A DNA stretch of 64,000 nt from Lophium mytilinum (Eukaryota): positions 379,834-443,833 of the forward strand of contig MU004189.1 of assembly GCA_010093605.1 (NCBI GenBank). The letters are read 5' to 3'. Shown here one piece after another: positions 52,014-62,400 of this stretch. Position 1 is the first letter of the stretch. Every line of letters begins with the position of its first letter. Under the pieces are notes generated by a model that saw nothing but the letters and a program-made list of their open reading frames with translations, had not been told where the DNA came from and did not search any database. A program made the position numbers and the translations under genes.

Positions 52014-54249
52014 CTACTGCCCGCCCATCCTCTCCGCCGTCGCCATCAAGCTGCCAATAAACGTCGTAATAAGCCTACTCTGCACCGCCACAATATCCTC
52101 CGGCACCAGCCAGATCGTAGCGCCCATCTTCCGGGCGATGCTAATCGCCAGCTTGGCGTTCTGATACGCCTCCTCCTCGGTCTTGCCGGCCAGCACGAGG
52201 TCGTAGTCGACGTAGGCGCTCTTCATGCCGTTCAGCACGTCGAGCAGCGGCACCGCCGTGCTGAGGCTGCTGTCCTTGAACGAGCGGATCGCGCTCGTGC
52301 GGCCCCCCTTCTTGACCATGTCGTTCGCCCAGCGGATCATGTCGCTGTCCGAGATGTCGCGCTTGCCCATGCGCTGCGCGAGCGACGAGAGGGTCGAGAC
52401 GATGTCGCGCCGCATGAGTTGCCATACCAGGCCTAGGGTCAGGGTGCGCTGGCCGTCGGTGATGTCGGCGCCCTGCATGCCGGGCAGTGAGAAGGAATTC
52501 GCTTTGCCGAGCTCCACGGCGTAGTTGGTGTTCTCGAGCGCTTTGAAGCGCATGATTTCGCCGCCGTTGGCTGGCGGCTTGTTCACGTGGCGCCAGTTTA
52601 CGGAGCCGGGGATCACTTTGTCGTAGGCTTGCAGGAGGACGATGCCGGACTTTAGGTCTTCGAAGAAGGATTGGACGACCGGTGAGACGTCGAGGGAGTT
52701 GAGCCATAGGGTGAAGACACGAGCTTCGCGCTCGCCCTCGGCATCGAAGTCGTCGATGTCGGCCTTTTCTTCTTCGGTGATCGGTTCGAGACCAGGGTGG
52801 TTATTGAAGAGATTGGCTACGAAGGCAAGATTCAGTTTTGGGTTGCCGGCAACGAGAGAGCTGGGGGTTAGGAATTTGCGGCAGTCGAGGCGGTCTGCAT
52901 TGTCGAGGACTTGCTCGGCGCGTTGGTGGAGATCTTGCGTTTGGAGAGGTGCGCGAGAGCAGATGTCTGGCTTTAGTTGATTGAGGAGCACCGTGTAGTT
53001 TTCGCCGTCCTTGACATCGGAAGAGAAGTTTTTGACGCTGTATGAAAGTCAATACTCGTCTTTCGTACGCCTACTTTTCAGTATATCAAAACTCACGTGC
53101 GGCCCCATTTGGCGTTCTTCAGATGGTAGTTGAACCACCTCAGCAGAATCTGTTCTGGTGGTAGACGGAGGAACTGTTCTAGAGTCTCGCCATCCTCTAG
53201 CAACCTGTAAAGCTCAGGATGTAGCTTTATGTCAATCTTGCCTAGCAAACCTCTGCGAATAATCTGCCAGATCATTCCCAGAATCAGATGCTCGCGGACC
53301 TCAATGATATCTCCGCTACCAATGTTAACAACGGAGCATCCTATACCCTTGCAAGACTCGATAACAATGTTGTTGTTCTCGGTCATGTGGAATGCATTCA
53401 ATGTCTTGATCTTCCGGCCAGGCCTGTTCAACACACGCTCGTCAATGGTATCCGGTACGCTGTCGTTGATGAGCTTCGCCAGCACGAGACCGTCCTTGCA
53501 CTCGTCGAACATCTCAAATGTATCGGTCGGGAAAGGCAGACGGTCGCCAATGTCCGGATCGCCTGCGAGCACGGCATTGATGTGGCGTGTGAACTCGGTA
53601 CGCTCGTCCTCGTTAATCGTGTGAGTGACGTTCGCCGATGAGCCCTGGACTTGTATCCGTCCACCGCCATGGCTGCCCTTTGAAGCGTGTCCAGATTGAG
53701 GAGTAGTGGTGGTGGCTGCGCTGCTGATGCCTCGCGGTCTTTGCGGTCCTGTGGACATGCGCTGTTGCGCTGGAGAGGATCCTCGCACTTTCGAGATGAG
53801 CTGACAATTATTAGTTTGAATGCTCTCACAGAAAGAACCCCAGGACATTATATCCCTCCTCTCCCAATCTGAACGCAATTCCTACACCGGAGAAAAGGCC
53901 ACGGAATCCAACGGAAGTCTTACATCGACATAGTCCTCCAGCTCGACTCTCCGCGAGCTGTCCAGCTCCACCTCTTTCAGCGCCTGGCGCACGACATCGT
54001 ACGGCTGGTGTTCAGACGACTGTGTCGCCTTGATGACCGTCGCCTCGTCTATGTAGCCCTTGTCGTCGACGTCGAGCCTGCGGAAGGATTCTTGCAGCCC
54101 GAAGATTTCAGATTGCTGGAACTGAGGGTATTTCCTGCGCACAGCATCCGCAAGAATTAGCCACGTATTCACACTGAGGATTTTCAGCGTCGGCGAGGAT
54201 AGTCAAAGGCCATGCGCGCATCTCACCTCTGGATCTTGATGATATTCAT
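52014..54249 (-). CDS. SAC6: Fimbrin (actin-bundling protein; EF-hand-like region + 4 CH domains), 4 exons
   Basis: HTINEDERTEFTRHIN, LINDSVPDTIDERVLN, LPPEQILLRWFNYHL, GNPKLNLAFVANLFN, EGEREARVFTLWLNSL, AISIARKMGA. Confidence 0.98.
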
Positions 54250-55752
54250 GTTGAGTAGCGGGGGTCTATCGCGCGGGGTGCAGGACCGGCGGTTGCGGGT
54301 GGTGTGGATTGTGGTCAACCCGGCCGGGCTCTGGGGTAATGTATACTGGTCTGCGGAGTAATGTTTGTCGGTGCCTGGTTCGTGTTGCGGCTCAGCCTCG
54401 TTGACATGCGCGGTTCAAAGGGTCCGTCGAAGCCTTTTGCGAGTCTGATGACGCTGCCTCTTGGCGCTGCGTTGCGCAGGTCGCTCTTTCGCTTGCGTTG
54501 CCACAATGTGTGGCTTGAAAGCCTTCACCGTCTTTACTCCCACAACTCGAACCTCATGATTCGCCAACGACAAGGTCACAATTGCACGTTAGGAGCCGCT
54601 GTTGGGGGTGTCTCGGCTGGTCGAAGCATAGTGCAAGAAGATAAAGTTAGGGGCTAGATCTTGGGCGCGTAGTGATAATCATGAATTGGGAGCTCGAAAC
54701 CGGTCTTATTGTTGCAAGGTCTTGTGCATGGGTCCACAATTAGGCGTGGTATTCTACACAGCTGGGAGGTGGGCGCAAGCGTCGGGGGTGCCTTGATAGG
54801 GCACCCATGGTGGCAAGTCAATAGGTCAATATAGTCAATCTAGAGGGTCACAGCATCACAGTGTCAAAAACCATGCATATTCCCAGCGTTCAGAAAAAGG
54901 AAGCAGCTTTTGATATCCTCATTATCATCCATCGAACACCCCCAATCCCTCCGTGTCCTTCCCAGCCCCCGTGACCTGAATACCCCATCCGTTCCCCCCC
55001 AAGGAGGGACCGCGGATATAAGAAAAGAAGTGGAAGGTGGAGTGTCGAGTTCGGTGGGAGCAAGCAATTAACGTCCATTTGTCGTTGATGTACCGGCCGT
55101 GCGAGCGTGCATAATCGCCAAAGAAGCCCAAATCCATCCATAATTTCGTGAAGAAAAGTAACAAAAAGAACAATAGAACAAGTTGTTGGATTGGTAGAAA
55201 GTACAGAATCGTCACCCGCAACACGCACACAACGGGCATGTATATGGCAGGGAGTCGTTTGGATCGTGAAGACAGACAAAATCGGTGCCGCCGCGTCTCT
55301 CGTTTTGACAAAACCACACTAAAAGTAGTGGGTTCGCTCCGCAAGAAAAGTCGTTATAGTTCGTGATAATGCTCCGAAGTTTAGGTAAGAAGAAACACAG
55401 AAGATGGAAAGGAAGCGTTGGGTGACACAAGGAGAAGTAAGGGTTTCGGATTCGAGCCCAGTGTCGTCTCGTCGGAGGGAGCGTGTGCGGTTCGGTTGGT
55501 GTCTGGCGGAAAGCGCAATCGTAAAGGTAAAAAAACCTTCTTTGTTGGAAAGAGTAACACAAGGAAAAGCGGCTATGCAGGTTCATGTCGTGACTAAACA
55601 AGTCCTCGTGGCGGAAGGCAAACAACCAGTCGCTGGAAAAACGCCTGATGGGATGGCCGTAAGTCACCAGACCCGGACAAGGCAAACCCTCCGTCTATTG
55701 CAAACATTCGAAGAAGCGGCCACCCAGTCATATTAGTGATATTCTGCAAGCT

Positions 55753-57875
55753 TTACCTCCGCCCGCCGGCCCGCTGGGTGATGGCCGGTCGGGTTCGTTG
55801 GAGGCCGTTGCGGTCGCGATCGAAAGCGCTACCCACAGGTCCGCCCACGCTGCCTTCGCGAATCGTTTTTCGGCGTTTGAGGCCTTCAATGTCCTCGCCT
55901 CCTCGACTGCTTGGACGGCCGTACGAGTCCTGCTCATCCTCGTCGTCTCGGCCACGCTTATTCGACGAGACACCATTCGTGGCATAAGCCTGGTTGGCGT
56001 ACGCGGGAACAGCAGCAGGCGCCTGATAAGCATCTGCGGCCGAATTGCCGTTCGTAGCGCTACCTCGGGTATCACTCATGACACTGTAGAGGTTAGACGA
56101 TGGTGGTTGTTGGGCACGCTGCGGGGTAGTGTAGCCCGACGTCCATTGAGGCTGATTCGTAGCTGTCGTTCGTGGCGTAGCTCGTCCAGACCCATTCTGG
56201 TGTGGAGACCCGGTCATCTCCGGAGATAAATGTGCGTGTTCTCCATGCAGCGATCCGGAAGGTGCGCTGGGATTGTAAGAATAGGCACCTCGGCTGCCGT
56301 TATAAGATGCACTGGTGTGGGTATATTCGTTGTCGTTTTCGTGGTCAGCTTCATCGTCTCCGGGGCCATGGGCCACCGGTTCAGGACCTTGACCCATCAT
56401 GCCGTCCGGCGGCTTGCTATCTACCTGCTGGTCAACTTCACCAGCTCTTGAAGGAGGAGCCATTTCGCTCTTCGGATATGCGCTGGGTTGAAGCGGTTGG
56501 CCGTAGCGCATCATGTGAGGCTGGGTATTGTACTGCGTCGACTGGGCAGGAGGCGCCGAGTACATTGGCCGGGAGCTGTCGTATCCCTGGCCGGGCGGGT
56601 ACGATTGCATCCCTTGGGGGAGAGAACCCGGCGGGGTTGACGCGGGAGTTGTTGGTACAGAGCGTGTGTTACTTAGTCCGGTATCTATGTTGAGGGGTTG
56701 ACTTCCAGGCATTGGCTGGACATTCGACTGGCTCCACTCGTACGAGCTGCCCTGATTGCCCATGCTGCCCATTATACTAGACGCGCTGGTGGGGGGAGTT
56801 GGAAACGTATGAGCCCTATCCAGGCCTGGTCGTGGAGCCGAGGGATGTGGCTGTATAGCGTGTGGAGGTTGCGGCATATGGCCCCCGATGGGGTTGCTCA
56901 TAGAATGATGGTGATGCAGCGACGGCGGCTGGGAGCTCGCCTGGGCGCCGAGGAAGCGCTGTTGGGAAGGATCAGCTCTGCGACTCCGATCCGCTGCCAT
57001 GGCACTAACACCTGCTCCAACACCAGCACGTGGCTGATTTGTTGGGTGGTACAAAAGCGCACCAATATCATGAACAAATAGAGGATACAGTTGCTCTGTT
57101 ATCTTCTCCTTATTCGCAAAGTCCAACGCTCGCTCGAAAGGAATCCTGAATATATCAGTACCAGGTTCAGCGTCATTAATGGGAATAAACGTACCAGACT
57201 CCCTTGAGGTGCATTGGGCCGATCTTGACAACGTGTCGTGTCTTTTCGCTTTTGAGAATGCCATCTCTACGGCCTCTGGTCATGCCCGCAACGTTAAGTA
57301 GCTTGGTGCCGTTGATCATGTGGTTGTCTGCACATTATCAGCCAAGGATAGATAAGATGAAAAGTTGGGTTTCATACCTTCTCGGCGAGCAACGCAAACA
57401 CCCTTGGCCTCGACTTGAAAGCAGAGACTGCCCTCGTCTTCCCACAATGTTGCGGTAACACGAGGTTTCATGCCAGGCGGTGCAACTTGACCGCTGGTAT
57501 CAAAGGTATGAGACTGATAGTTCTGCGAGCCTGAAAGCGAAGAAGCGGGTGCTCCAGATGTCATGGCTGTTTTGTCAGCAAATTCTGCTCCGTCGAATTT
57601 GAGATGCACTAACCTGGGAGGGGGAGAGCAGCTTGACCCATTGAATTGCCCATCGATGAAGATGCAGGAAGCTGTGATGGGACGCCATATCCTTGGCCGT
57701 ACGGTGGATATCCACCGGGCCCAGACGCATATTGAGGTCCTGGTTGTAATATCGGCGGTTGTGTCTGATACGAGTAGTGCGAAAGTCCGGCAGGAGCGCC
57801 TGAGGACGGCGCGTGTGCTGTAGCGGCCGACATGTGAGATGGATGCACCTCTCCATAGGGCTGCATCTGGTTCAT
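55753..57875 (-). CDS. stuA: APSES transcription factor StuA/Asm-1 (AUG-initiated form), 4 exons
   Basis: [30 protein letters not shown] / [43 protein letters not shown] / [39 protein letters not shown]; start MNQMQPY resembles A. nidulans StuA. Confidence 0.97.
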
Positions 57876-59450
57876 GCTGCTGTAGTTCTCGGCGTTGTAC
57901 CCGTAATCTTGCTGAGAACCGTAAGGAGACTCTTGCTGCGACTGCACATTCAACGGGTGTCCTTCACGACTCAGCGCCTGGGGAGTCTGTTCGGGCGAAG
58001 GCGTCTTGAAACCGCCTGCGTGGCCGTTGACCGACGAAGAATAAGACGTATTCGAGCTCGCACTGCCGTTGAGGACAGATGACGCGCTGAAGGAACCACC
58101 CCGAGGCGAGGAGGAATTCGAGGACGTGCTCGCGTGCGCCTGGATCTGGGACAAAGCAGGCAATCGCTCCGTCGGGACAGACGGTCGTGGCGCGTATTGG
58201 GGGTTATACCACGATGCGGCGTCTGCGGGGCCTCGGGAGTGGACCGACGTTATCGATGGCAGCTCCAGCTTTTCGGTGTTGGAGGGGTGCGGGCGATGGT
58301 TCGCTGCAGCACTCGCTTCAAATCGTCCACGCGGGAGAGCCTCGAGTCAACGCACCAGATTGCCGAGCTGAGAAGCGGAAACAGGCAGTGGACGCTCTGC
58401 GGCGGGGATTGCAGAATCGGTGCAAGTTGCCGGCGGATGAGACTGGATGGTGTTATAGTTTGATGCGACTCCAGCGATAAGGCGGAGTAGGCGGCGGCGG
58501 CAGATACGGGAGAGACGATTGTTTGCTAGGAATGAAACCTGGGGACCAGTCCGAAGCCAGCGATGCCTGTCAAACACGTGGGCAAACAGGTCTCAGCGGT
58601 CGCGCAGACGTCGAAAAACAGAAGCGCGAATATATTCAGTGCGCTCTCGACCTGTGAGGATTTCCGGGGGAGTACTTGGCAGTGCAGCGAGGTAGCACCA
58701 AGGTGGTGAAACAGGACCGAGGAATTTCGCAGATCCGGATGCCAGGAATGCAGCACCGCGCCTTTCACACAGGGTCTTCAGAACAGGAACGCTGAAATGC
58801 TAAAAGACAAAGAGTACGTCGTTAGGTCGTCGCGGTCGTGAGGACTAGCTTTCAAAAATGCTTTTGGCGGACGGTCAATGCACGCTATGAGATGGAACGA
58901 CGGCGGCCAGCCTAGGGACGAAGATGCTGAGATAGTGTGCTGCTGCAGCCACCGAGCTCATTGGACGGGCACGAGACGGTCTGGCTGGTCGTAGCGGGTC
59001 GTAAAGTCGTCGCGCACCTGGTGTGGTGGCGGGCCGGGCGGTTCGTGATTGCTCGCGGGCGGTGGAGAGGAACTGGTAGCACGGGTTAGCAGAGCGGACG
59101 CATTGAGGTCGACGGGAACGCGCACCCTCGACGAGTATGGAGTGGTGGGAGGAGGTGGAGCGCGAGAGAGGGCGCAAAAGCAGTGGGGAGGGCGGAGGTT
59201 TAGAAGCCGGAGGAGGTTGGGATGGGACTTGATGCTAGCGCCGCGCGAGCCAACCAGGCCAGCAGAGATAGGCGAGCACGGGAAACGCAATGGCAAGGCG
59301 CGGAAAAGAAACAACGGACGACACTCACGCTGGTCGAACAGGACGAACTGACACTCACGGGACCACAGCCTTGGGGAGCTCAACGACAGAGGGCGAGGCT
59401 GCTGAGGTGCTGGCTGCTGAGGCTGCTTGAAGCTGCTGCTCTCGTGCTGG
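57876..59450 (-). promoter_or_regulatory. Long spliced 5' leader of stuA with two predicted introns (59358-59073, 59017-58800); upstream limit uncertain
   Basis: GTGAGT...GCTAAC...CAG and GTGCGC...CCTAAC...TAG splice signals; no sense ATG between 57950 and 58958. Confidence 0.6.
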
Positions 59451-62400
59451 GACTGGACTGGGGAAAGTGAGAGGATGCAGCCGCGGATTCTGTGCAGAGC
59501 TCACGCACAGCGGGCAGGCGGGCAGGCAGAGGCTAGGGCTGGCTGCGGAGCACACGCCTCGAAGCGGCCTGTGTTGGATGGGTGGATGGGGGCGCACTTC
59601 ACGATGCTCAGATGCTGCTGGCTGCTGCTGCTCCGGCTGCTGCGTGGCGGGCCGGCACGAGTCTCGCAGGACACGGCGGGCTTGTCGGCGATGAGGTCCA
59701 CTTGTTGCAGCTGTTGCAGCGGGAGCGTGGGTGTGGTCGTGGATTGGAGGTGCAGGCCCAGCTGTACCTAAAAGGCGGGTGGAGATCTCTGGGGCGCTGC
59801 TGCTCGCCCTCTGCCCAGCGCAGACAATCTAAAGAGAATTGGGCGTGTGGGGCGGCATGGATGCGTGTGGCGGGCGCACGCACAAGTCCCGTGTGAAGGG
59901 CCGTTTCGAAAGCTCAGAAAGTCGCTCTGAAGACGACACCCCAGGACATCCAGCACTCCCCCCGGCGAATCGCGAACCACTCTGGCGCTGCACGCAAGCG
60001 AGGGTCTCCCAGCTCCCAGCCACCCCAGACGACCCGACGTTTGCTCCACGCTCGTGATGCGCACGCCCCCAGCGCACACAGGCGCCCGCACGCAAGGGCA
60101 GCCGCCGCTATTCCAGGCCTCCGCTGCTGCGTGGCGAGAGGGTGTTGCGGCATTCCGCCAGCCCACGGCTTGGACGTCGACGTCGTCCATCGCCCACCAG
60201 ATATCAACGCAGCCGCCGGCCCTCCCCCAGCCAAGCCAGCCTCTCGACGGCCAGGCGAACGAACCCAGCCCGGCGGCAGCAGCCCACAAGCCCGGGGTGC
60301 CGATAGGAAGAAGACGGCTGAATGGGCAGGCCAGTGGCAGGCGGCGGAGATATTCGACAGCAGCAGAACGCGCTTAGCGGTGCCGTGGGTGCTGATAGCG
60401 ACCCGTTTCGGGCCTGTCGTCTTGCCTTATTCAGCACGACCGGTGCGGAGAGGGCAGAATCGCAACAGGACAGCGACGGGCAGGGTGGGACGTGTTCCGA
60501 GCGGCCCTGCGATCGGGAGGCTGCGCGAGCCCATGCCAGCCCTTGTCCGAAACGGCGGCCCTTGTCCATCGTCTTCTGGGCCAGCGACTGTGCAGCGGGG
60601 AGCAGCCGGTGGCCTCAACGCCGGCAAACGCGTGATGATTTGCGCTGCACCGCTGCGAGTCAAACCGCGCCAGGGAAAAGCAAAAGTGCTTCTTCCACCC
60701 TGCCTTGGAACCCCCCGCGCCGGGGCCACCTCGACGTCCATCAACACTCACTCACCAGAGCGCTTCAGGCAGGCCGACCAAGGCAGGCAGCTGGAGGCGG
60801 CCCCGGTTCCAGCGTCCAGACAGGCTAAAGGGCCGCCGCCCCGATCCAACAACGACAACGCAGGACGCTGGGATCGCGACGACGAACGGGATGCGCGGAC
60901 GGCAGGCCGTGCAGGGAGCGGCCGCGGAGCATCTCTCTCATTCGCTGACGAGGGAGTCCGAGGGCTTGGGGGCAAGCACTGGACCCAGCCCCCGCCGGGA
61001 TGGTGGAGTTGAGGGCAGAGCAGCCCTTGATCGTCGCCGTGGCTCGCCGTCAGCCAACGGAGGGCGTCCGCCAGCGGTCTCCCGAGGCGGCTGGGACGAG
61101 GCCGTGGGAGGCTGGTGCGACGTGGAGACTCGAGAGCAGACGGGGAGCGGGTGCGACTTGCTTGTCAGCGTTGCGAGCAGATGATACGGCTTCGTGGAGG
61201 CCTCCAGCGAGTCCTCAGGCGCCGCGACTCCACCTCGGCTGGGCCGCCAATTGCACTGGCATGGATCCAGCGACGACGTGCTTGCCAAACGTGCCGACTG
61301 TACCACGGGCATGGAGTTGGACGTGGGCGCCCGCGCGGCGTGGTTGGCTCGTCGTCTTGCGGTGTGAGCGATGTGCTGGCGGCGCTAGGCCCGATGCGGC
61401 ACCCGTCCTTCACTGTCACGCCGCTGAGGTCAAGCCGGTCGCTCAACACCTTCTTGCGAATCGACGGCGGGCCTCTCGACATTCGATTGTCGTCGGCCAG
61501 GCCACAACCACCGCCCCGGGTCCTGGACGGCTGGAGACACAAGCCGCGAGGCCTGCGCAGCTGAAACCGCCCTGCGAGTACGAGCCTCGTTTTCTGTCAC
61601 CGCTCAGCGCGCAGGTCACGGCGCGCATCACGGGTTTTCCACGGGGTGGAGCTGTTGGCGTCCCTCCACATGCGAACCGCCCATCCTTTTGCCCAGCCAC
61701 AGCGGCCGGCTGCCTCTGTGTGCGTGCTGCGGGGACCGCTTCGCGCGCCAAACCACGTTCGCATCCATGATGGTTCGATCCCGCTAGCCGCGCAGCCTGG
61801 CGACTTGTTTCGACGTCGTTGCTGCCCTCACGCTGCTGCTGGGAGTGATGCTCGGCCCCGTGAGACGTGGCCACAAAGCCACGGCCGGTGGACAATGGGC
61901 ATTCTCTCTCGTGGTGCCACGGGCGTCGAGGGAGGGTAGACAATCCCCTCACAATCCCCTCAGCGCACGTAATCGAGCATGGGAGCGCGGCCTTGCTCGT
62001 CGGGCCAAGTCGCACAGGAGGCTGTCGGTGCGAGCTGTGGCGTCTGGCCCTTCGGCGGTTGCACTGAGGATTTCCCAGGCTGCAAGGGGAGTTGCACAAC
62101 GCCCTCGTGGACTGGAGGAATGCAAAAATAAAGGTGCATTGCACATCCGGCGCGAGAGGGACGGCGGGCTGGTTTGGCGAACCGGCGCCGTCGCCAGCGC
62201 TGCTGACCACCCTCGCCGTCGAGATAGGCAGGTTGTTAGGAAGGCCTCGCGCACTGTCACCTATTCCAGGCTCAGACATTCTCCCGTCAGCCAGCAGCGC
62301 CTCAATTGCCAGGCAGAGATTGTCGCAATCCGGCGATATGATGCCGTCGTATTAGCTCGCATCCAGGCGCGGGTGAGGATTCGAGCAATCTGGGGAACGA

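Follow-up and report, generated by a model that had tools for sequence, protein, structure and literature searches.

Introduction

Among the described systems, Neurospora crassa CPC1 (cpc-1) and its Pezizomycotina homologues come closest to the locus considered here, the stuA gene on a 64,000-nt stretch of Lophium mytilinum DNA (assembly GCA_010093605.1, contig MU004189.1, positions 379,834 to 443,833 of the forward strand; the whole stretch is called the window below), in which the StuA frame continues upstream of its AUG as an N-terminal extension. As described in the main text of Ivanov et al. (2017, PMC5487733), cpc-1 encodes a fungal transcription factor behind a long leader bearing upstream open reading frames (uORFs), and it has an AUG-less in-frame extension that is conserved as protein, with conserved near-cognate codons having A at -3 and G at +4. 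On the one hand, stuA is similar to cpc-1 in each of these respects. On the other hand, CPC1 is a bZIP protein whereas StuA belongs to the APSES family, and the start codons differ, with a single CTG in 22 of 22 sequences for StuA as against three conserved near-cognates kept in 73-98 of 100 species for cpc-1 (PMC5487733). Unlike that of cpc-1 as described there, the StuA extension neither overlaps nor bypasses a long inhibitory uORF. Extracts, in vivo work and ribosome profiling all demonstrated translation for cpc-1 (PMC5487733), whereas the StuA extension is known from sequence and assembled contigs. The main text of that paper and the ten supplements searched make no mention of asm-1, stuA, APSES or NCU01414.

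Similarities are also found outside this pair. According to what PMC5487733 and PMC6034079 say of them, c-Myc and C/EBP beta each give a long non-AUG form and a short AUG form from one mRNA, and an AUG-free interval such as that of stuA fits leaky scanning; the families are unrelated to StuA, and the functions of the isoforms were shown there, whereas for StuA we infer them. Aspergillus nidulans brlA beta, in the part of PMC3563288 that treats it, is like StuA a developmental regulator with a uORF and has a 23-aa N-terminal extension in one isoform, but unlike in StuA this extension comes from an alternative transcript and an AUG. Candida albicans EFG1 is an APSES orthologue whose translation is controlled by a leader of about 1.1 kb, and non-AUG starts are considered in the relevant sections of PMC6034079; unlike in stuA, its uORFs all end within the leader and an extended Efg1 is excluded there. 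Since those authors exclude an extended Efg1, a StuA-type extension is not a feature of that yeast orthologue.

In many fungi, conidiophore patterning, sexual development, secondary metabolism and virulence are governed by StuA and its orthologues, and three decades of study have dealt with a protein of about 620-650 aa translated from an AUG. The A. nidulans gene, of the same family, likewise has a leader of great length that bears introns and short uORFs, and it is under translational control. The work of Wu and Miller from 1997 reportedly ascribed this control to the short uORFs, with an AUG as the start and no in-frame CUG form.

In this study, we conclude that the stuA mRNA most probably encodes a long StuA, started at a CUG, and a short StuA, started at the AUG, in one frame, by CUG initiation combined with leaky scanning. 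A conserved extension started at a near-cognate codon is a known kind of element. The CUG-started form of StuA is undescribed in the literature searched, a statement that holds for that search, as subscription journals lay mostly outside it.

Results

A conserved CUG upstream of the StuA AUG

On the minus strand of the window, the stuA frame is stop-free for 157 codons, from the TGA at 58349-58347 to the first in-frame ATG at 57875-57873, and the encoded peptide reads ..HRPHPSNTEKLELPSITSVH..ERLPALSQIQ..FKTPSPEQTP.. It holds a CTG at 58268-58266 in the context GAAAAG CTG G, 131 codons from the ATG, and a TTG at 58163-58161. A first-pass annotation made from the letters had described this frame and peptide with coordinates that are all right on the minus strand, and had proposed that a StuA isoform longer by 131 residues starts at the CTG, which it considered to stand in a strong context; every comparative test reported below supports that isoform. 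The 157-codon open frame by itself is weak evidence because the region is GC-rich (G+C 55-70%) and holds many long open frames: within 54000-61000 there are 52 stop-free stretches of at least 80 aa, including one of 371 aa on the opposite strand. What places the extension beyond chance is its conservation, seen in the stops by frame and in the third-position differences, and not the openness of the frame.

For the comparison of DNA, metagenome contigs were scanned with a ten-sequence alignment, which gave 43 loci, all with the extension block. L025, which begins inside the block at a contig edge, and L021, which ends before the main ATG, were excluded, and copies more than 97% identical were merged. 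This left 22 distinct DNA sequences (the window and 21 metagenome groups), to which the counts at the DNA level refer.

The CUG and its context are fixed in these sequences, synonymous sites included. The column of L27, the residue encoded by the CTG, shows CTG in 22 of 22 sequences. The next invariant Leu is encoded by CTG in eight, CTA in five and CTC in nine, the Leu of R-L-P by five different codons, and all other invariant degenerate residues by two to six codons each; the share of CTG among the other Leu codons of the same open reading frames (ORFs) is 27%. A at -3 and G at +4 surround the CTG in 22 of 22, so that the strong context assumed in the first-pass annotation is indeed kept. 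The codon at -3 is ACC in 20 of 20 sequences with Thr, the one at -2 is always G.A, the one at +1 is GAG in 21 of 21 sequences with Glu, and the one at -1 is AAG in 16 and AAA in six. Apart from this last alternation, synonymous change from -9 to +6 of the CTG was recorded in none of the 22 sequences. A at -3 and G at +4 are the two positions rated most important in fungal start contexts, as far as these are treated in PMC5487733.

No in-frame AUG is available upstream of the CUG: none of the 22 sequences has an in-frame ATG in the interval between the upstream in-frame stop and the CTG. For the window, L001, L005, L029 and L039, five in all, this interval also contains no other near-cognate codon, and it measures only six codons in L029 and 11 in L001. 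In-frame upstream ATGs in relatives, which the leading Met of some ORF calls had suggested, are thereby ruled out. That leading Met is unreliable, since P0029 has Met where the near-identical P0001 has Val, so that alternative starts were printed as Met.

The TTG at 58163, which the first-pass annotation had listed as a further near-cognate codon, was tried as a second start and rejected. Its column reads TTG in five sequences, CTG in three, TTA in six, CTC in five and CTT in three, with a near-cognate TTG or CTG in only eight of 22.

Conservation of the extension as protein

The extension is under purifying selection at the level of protein. The distance from the CTG to the first in-frame ATG varies from 111 to 139 codons and stays in frame in all 22 sequences, and frames 0, +1 and +2 of the extension contain 0, 36 and 74 stops, respectively; the stops or frameshifts in orthologues that the first-pass annotation had named as evidence against its proposal are thus absent. 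The ratio of nonsynonymous to synonymous substitution rates (dN/dS, Nei-Gojobori) was computable, with 0 < dS <= 1.5, for 33 of 231 pairs and lies below 1 in all of them (0.094-0.653), as the first-pass annotation had expected. In eight non-overlapping close pairs it is 0.094 (window-L001), 0.198, 0.156, 0.141, 0.120, 0.364, 0.261 and 0.150, which is similar to or somewhat above that of the canonical StuA N-terminus. For window-L001, the ratios of the extension (0.094) and the canonical N-terminus (0.105) are practically equal, and the extension shows 15, 10 and 61 differences at the three codon positions. Over the eight close pairs these differences sum to 87, 67 and 278, so that third positions account for 278 of 432 (64%). 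Identity is 0.58-0.78 in the 125-150 nt 5' of the conserved context as against 0.75-0.90 in the extension, and gap lengths sum to multiples of 3 in the extension, whereas most gaps in that upstream stretch are of 1, 2, 4 or 5 nt.

A phmmer search with the 157-residue extension against 1.84 billion representatives gave 30 matches at E <= 1e-3, of which 13 reached 1e-10 and seven 1e-30, and in 28 of the 30 the matched stretch continues in frame into the StuA N-terminus. The window and 20 matches were aligned (21 sequences); left out were P0004, P0007, P0010, P0012, P0019, P0023, P0029 and P0030, which are partial or start inside the extension, as well as P0021 and P0026. Residues 5' of N23 are unalignable, and conservation sets in abruptly at N23-T24-E25-K26-L27-E-L-P-S-I. 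The invariant columns are L27, L29, P30, S31, W46, T115, P116, P118, M158 and N159, so that the CTG-encoded L27 is the first invariant column of the alignment. Conserved blocks (..VH.RGP.D..WYN.., RLP.L, SSPRGGS, TSY and K-T-P-S-P) alternate with linkers of variable length, and the LPxI/L residues pointed out in the first-pass annotation are among the best conserved of the extension. Met is absent between L27 and the invariant M158-N159 in all 21 sequences.

Depletion of ATG and the main start

Between the CTG and the main ATG, the 22 sequences together hold no in-frame and eight off-frame ATGs, whereas codon shuffles give 42.5 +/- 5.5, with none of 1000 reaching eight or fewer. The 80 codons after the main ATG hold 73 in-frame and 64 off-frame ATGs against a mononucleotide expectation of 53.6, and the up to 402 nt before the CTG hold three in-frame and 19 off-frame ATGs against an expectation of 95.9. 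All eight off-frame ATGs lie in the +1 frame. Because the main start always reads ATGAA, a +1-frame uORF without an earlier stop ends on a UGA overlapping this start. In the window, the interval from the CUG to the main AUG holds a single ATG in any frame, the one at 57949.

The main AUG is invariant and is followed by an invariant Asn, and the depletion of ATG ends there. Its A at +4 is invariant in the 22 sequences, and a purine stands at -3 in 20 of them. Reading from the CTG, 20 of 22 sequences have this AUG as their first in-frame ATG, while L020 and L033 have one seven codons before the conserved M-N-Q. The ATG-poor interval together with the invariant main AUG is what would be expected if ribosomes passing the CUG must reach the AUG, which argues that both starts may be in use.

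Transcripts of the locus

Assembled contigs of four runs (X1, X2, X4 and X5), none of them labelled as RNA, were compared with 55500-61000. They derive from RNA, since they are spliced, in all four runs at three introns of the coding sequence. Record 2 of X1 (2884 nt, 0 mismatches) spans 57010-60092 and removes 57145-57193, 57328-57377, 57567-57613 and 59073-59125. Over 57614/57630-59072, X2 has 87 and X4 has 24 differences; both are from other organisms or strains and have the coding-sequence introns in common. The contigs show at least two substitutions inside the extension (57906 and 57924), both at third positions, which were not used as evidence. X5 covers 57614-59072 only piecewise.

The mature mRNA includes the extension: the X1, X2 and X4 contigs and a spliced transcript of a relative (L016) have it contiguous with the main ORF. 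Within 57614-59072 the contigs of the four runs show no splice joint, and therefore the extension, the TGA at 58349 and 726 nt of leader share one exon. The first-pass annotation had said that an AUG-bearing exon spliced onto the stuA frame, or a transcription start downstream of 58160, would speak against it. The contigs of the four runs show no ATG-bearing exon joined to that frame, and at least some stuA transcripts begin about 1.8 kb upstream of the CTG. Other spliced transcripts likewise offer no in-frame AUG for the extension: in L016 a TGA stands 17 codons upstream, and P0004 is open for 95 codons, none of them for Met.

Built from the joints, the mature leader is at least 2164 nt long, of which about 1.77 kb precede the CUG. 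It contains four ATGs in the window, as against 18.5 +/- 3.2 in dinucleotide shuffles (none of 500 reaching four or fewer). Related loci of the same type are also depleted of ATG upstream of the CTG.

Nature and distribution of the extension

Pfam has no family for the extension (0 at E <= 0.1). The AlphaFold2 model built from the 22-sequence alignment has a mean predicted local distance difference test score of 51.9, a predicted template modelling score of 0.11 and no secondary structure, and a structural search of the Atlas gave no match for this model, the best (0.76) lying below the level of chance matches. Since the model is disordered, the conserved parts look like short linear motifs in a disordered N-terminus. 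Among them, the K-T-P-S-P and S-S-P-R blocks resemble proline-directed kinase sites and may be phosphorylated.

The first 46 or so residues of the extension recur in two families of non-StuA ORFs. P0026 (584 aa, 15 members, contigs up to 77 kb) matches at residues 340-383 with a BLASTP E of 2e-13, and the alignment begins exactly at the CTG column, where P0026 has Met. P0021 (405 aa, with a C-terminal GATA zinc finger) matches at residues 174-239. This recurrence lends modest and independent support to the module being a protein element.

Among named matches, the extension is found in the Dothideomycetes Lasiodiplodia, Diplodia, Phyllosticta, Aplosporella, Pyrenophora, Didymella, Plenodomus, Periconia, Venturia and others. 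In Eurotiomycetes, L018 shares 91% identity with a Penicillium model over the canonical N-terminus, and the block is present in many models of Penicillium and Aspergillus. The named matches include none from Sordariomycetes or Leotiomycetes, a blank that is not evidence for a missing extension.

The public StuA models range from 609 to 1357 aa, and within one cluster of 90% identity the lengths are 593, 639, 645, 825 or 871 aa. Among 42 named models of the Penicillium/Aspergillus group, 11 begin at the canonical M-N, M-S or M-A-S-M-N, 28 contain the whole block and three contain part of the extension. The lead-ins of these models are mutually unrelated; some join an ATG directly to L-E-L-P-S, and three have no Met and are flagged as partial. 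The Dothideomycete models inspected are equally inconsistent over the extension. Among the protein models, that of Venturia nashicola (P0076) starts with M-E-L-P-S-I-S and has its Met in the CTG column, and that of Pyrenophora (P0068) starts with M-P-M-L-E-L-P-S; should these Met residues stand for genuine ATGs, a strong start would have replaced the weak one in place in these lineages.

Penicillium-type leaders (L017 and L018) share a conserved short uORF starting ATGCGTTTGCTGCAC. In L017 it is a 12-codon mini-ORF with an ATG (M-R-L-L-H-H-P-S-L-H-L-S) followed by GTACGT, in a stretch from about 608 to 79 nt 5' of the CTG; an AG stands in frame 26 codons before the CTG, and the stretch from GTACGT to this AG is as rich in ATG as an intron. 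Five named Penicillium models (P0110, P0111, P0112, P0114 and P0115) use a join of this type. In L018, the mini-ORF lies about 364 nt 5' of the CTG, is closed by a stop and has no donor. The context of the CTG is unchanged in both, and the transcript contigs of the window show no mini-exon join of the L017 type.

Other features of the locus

The coordinates of the locus are collected in Table 1. From its domain and orthology, the gene is identified as stuA, encoding an APSES transcription factor: a segment of about 100 aa of the window protein is nearly letter-for-letter that of named StuA proteins (including P0033), and Pfam PF04383 (KilA-N/APSES) matches the spliced relatives P0004 and P0029.

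Table 1. Positions of stuA features in the window
Feature	Position	Strand	Basis or remark
Proposed CUG start of the long StuA isoform	58266..58268	-	CTG in 22/22
Conserved initiation context AACACCGAAAAG CTG GAG, A at -3, G at +4	58263..58280	-	codon columns
Best-conserved module, ~46 aa, LELPSI..VH.RGP.D..WYN..RP....RLP.L	58131..58268	-	invariant and near-invariant columns
K-T-P-S-P block	57993..58007	-	T115, P116, P118 invariant, K114 at least 90% conserved (21 sequences)
Body of the N-terminal extension, 130 codons after the CUG	57876..58265	-	frame kept, dN/dS, predicted disorder
Main (annotated) AUG of StuA, start of the short isoform	57873..57875	-	M158-N159 invariant (21 sequences)
Upstream stop of the stuA frame, TGA	58347..58349	-	closes frame 26 codons 5' of the CUG; shares an exon with the extension
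StuA coding region from the main AUG, 641 aa spliced	55753..57875	-	conceptual translation from transcript joints
Introns of the StuA coding sequence	57567-57613, 57328-57377, 57145-57193, optional 56959-57009	-	transcript joints
Single exon with extension, in-frame stop and 726 nt leader	57614..59072	-	X1 record 2, X2 record 5, X4 record 6, unbroken
+1-frame uORF, 25 codons, UGA overlapping the main AUG (AUGA)	57872..57949	-	L001, L003, L004 arranged alike
Leader uORF, 28 codons, StuA frame, own stop	58875..58961	-	sequence
Leader intron, 53 nt, GT..AG	59073..59125	-	joint in X1, X5, X2
Upstream leader exon	59126..60092	-	X1 record 2; transcript extends at least to 60092
Short leader uORFs: ATG 59949 (11 codons), ATG 59858 (9 codons)	within 59126..60092	-	

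At the leader intron, X4 instead has a joint from 59072 to 59335 that leaves out 262 nt and puts six other letters in their place; this is either an alternative splice form of the leader or a sequence difference of that organism. L001, the closest relative, has a uORF of likewise 28 codons about 708 nt 5' of its CTG, a distance similar to that in the window, and its C-terminal residues are weakly similar to those of the 28-codon uORF of the window, which may be a conserved regulatory uORF.

Just 3' of the APSES domain, the 51-nt in-frame GT..AG segment 56959-57009 of the minus strand is removed in X1 and X4 and kept in X2, and the 17 residues that it encodes when retained match a segment conserved in named StuA proteins. 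Since it is spliced in some runs and retained in another, with its residues conserved, it looks like an optional exitron that gives StuA variants of 641 and 658 aa.

Discussion

We propose that, during cap-dependent scanning, ribosomes would cross a very long and AUG-poor leader of about 1.77 kb to the CUG, and that part of them would initiate at CUG 58268, which stands in an optimal context, to give a StuA longer by 131 residues (772 aa, or 789 aa when the 51-nt optional intron is kept). The remaining ribosomes would scan on through an AUG-poor stretch of 390 nt to AUG 57875 and produce the annotated form of 641 or 658 aa. The ratio of long to short form would be set by how stringently start codons are selected and perhaps also by the few leader uORFs. 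The long form would bear an additional docking and phosphorylation region. Considering that this region is disordered and has a conserved module of about 46 aa and the K-T-P-S-P block, the extension probably gives long StuA partners or regulation of its own. Initiation at the CUG, the production of both forms and the role of the extension are what we infer from these observations.

Several points weigh against this proposal. There is no conserved hairpin 3' of the CTG (RNAalifold -3.65 kcal/mol, 6 pairs, 0 compensatory changes). The conserved N-T-E-K just 5' of the CTG could mean a slightly earlier start, yet no start codon is present there. The RNA evidence consists of assembled contigs, in which rare splice forms are dropped and transcript 5' ends and levels are invisible. 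The 22 DNA sequences are related to one another and were fetched with peptide patterns, one of which contains K-L-E-L, so that, depending on how its Leu was back-translated, the invariance of the CTG could be partly ascertainment; the second pattern does not span the CTG column. The set spans Dothideomycetes and Eurotiomycetes types, and Pleosporales-type sequences (NTVKLELPSISSVHA...) lie outside it. Finally, since the L017 mini-exon could splice in frame and five models have that join, some Penicillium-type lineages may also, or instead, use an AUG for the long form.

The last point leads to a different explanation, in which the extension is translated from an AUG on an upstream mini-exon in a transcript form missing from the contigs. 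The ATG mini-ORF of L017 with its GTACGT donor and in-frame AG, the five Penicillium models of the same type and the loss of rare isoforms from assembled contigs agree with it. However, the exon 57614-59072 of the window is unbroken in the four runs and contains the in-frame TGA 58349, the mini-ORF of L018 is closed by a stop and lacks a donor, and named models of different genera have unrelated lead-ins. The CTG and its context, which an AUG-started form would not need, are invariant even in L017, and the spliced transcripts L016 and P0004 have no in-frame AUG, so that we regard a mini-exon start as improbable. We give about as little credence to the CUG form being the sole real product, with the main AUG merely an internal Met. 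The extension is constrained like the canonical N-terminus, the CUG context is optimal and many gene models already count the extension as coding, all of which this explanation would accommodate. Against it, the depletion of ATG in three frames ends exactly at the main AUG (eight before it, 137 in the next 80 codons), Met-Asn is invariant amid a disordered and variable stretch with a purine at -3 in 20 of 22, and near-cognate codons are generally weaker than AUG, a point on which PMC5487733 cites work in N. crassa.

Two further explanations appear very unlikely. If the region were an untranslated leader conserved as RNA or DNA, through a structure, internal entry or a protein-binding site, and its open frame were a by-product, then the reported leader-based translational control of stuA (from the title of Wu and Miller 1997) and the nucleotide-level conservation of 15 nt around the CTG would find an explanation. 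The 64% share of third-position differences, the dN/dS of 0.09-0.36, the length changes by whole codons only and the stops (0 against 36 and 74) are those of a protein instead, no conserved structure was found around the CTG, and the 46-aa module recurs in other proteins. It is hardly more to be expected that translation of the extension begins at another site or in another way, be it at some other near-cognate codon, at the AAG at -1 or through reinitiation following a uORF. N-T-E-K is conserved 5' of the CTG and 17 of 22 sequences have another upstream in-frame near-cognate codon, but these codons are conserved neither in position nor in identity and are mostly in poor context. They are lacking altogether in five of 22, including the window, and L029 has only ACA GTC AAC ACC GAA AAG between the stop and the CTG.

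Returning to the proposal that CUG initiation and leaky scanning yield two forms, we also consider a wider picture, which is plausible but which we put forward tentatively and stop short of favouring. In Aspergillus, Penicillium and many Dothideomycetes, StuA, as APSES master regulator of development, would always be two proteins per mRNA: a form from the invariant CUG, whose disordered N-terminus carries the 46-aa docking module and proline-directed phosphosites, and the AUG form on which work has been done to date. Their ratio, set by stringency, would be the translational control of stuA, and the two would have differing developmental outputs (asexual as opposed to sexual development, and virulence).

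In summary, a CUG-started StuA would be a feature common to many moulds on which standard annotation is inconsistent. It would explain the inconsistent public models, with their invented first exons and partial flags, and offers a simple rule to fix them. If the proposal is true, StuA would join cpc-1 as a second, very clean case of a fungal transcription factor with deeply conserved non-AUG initiation, and the translational control of stuA would gain a concrete and testable mechanism. Complementation, tagging and overexpression constructs based on the AUG would then miss one StuA isoform, and the phenotypes of stuA deletions would represent the combined loss of two proteins.

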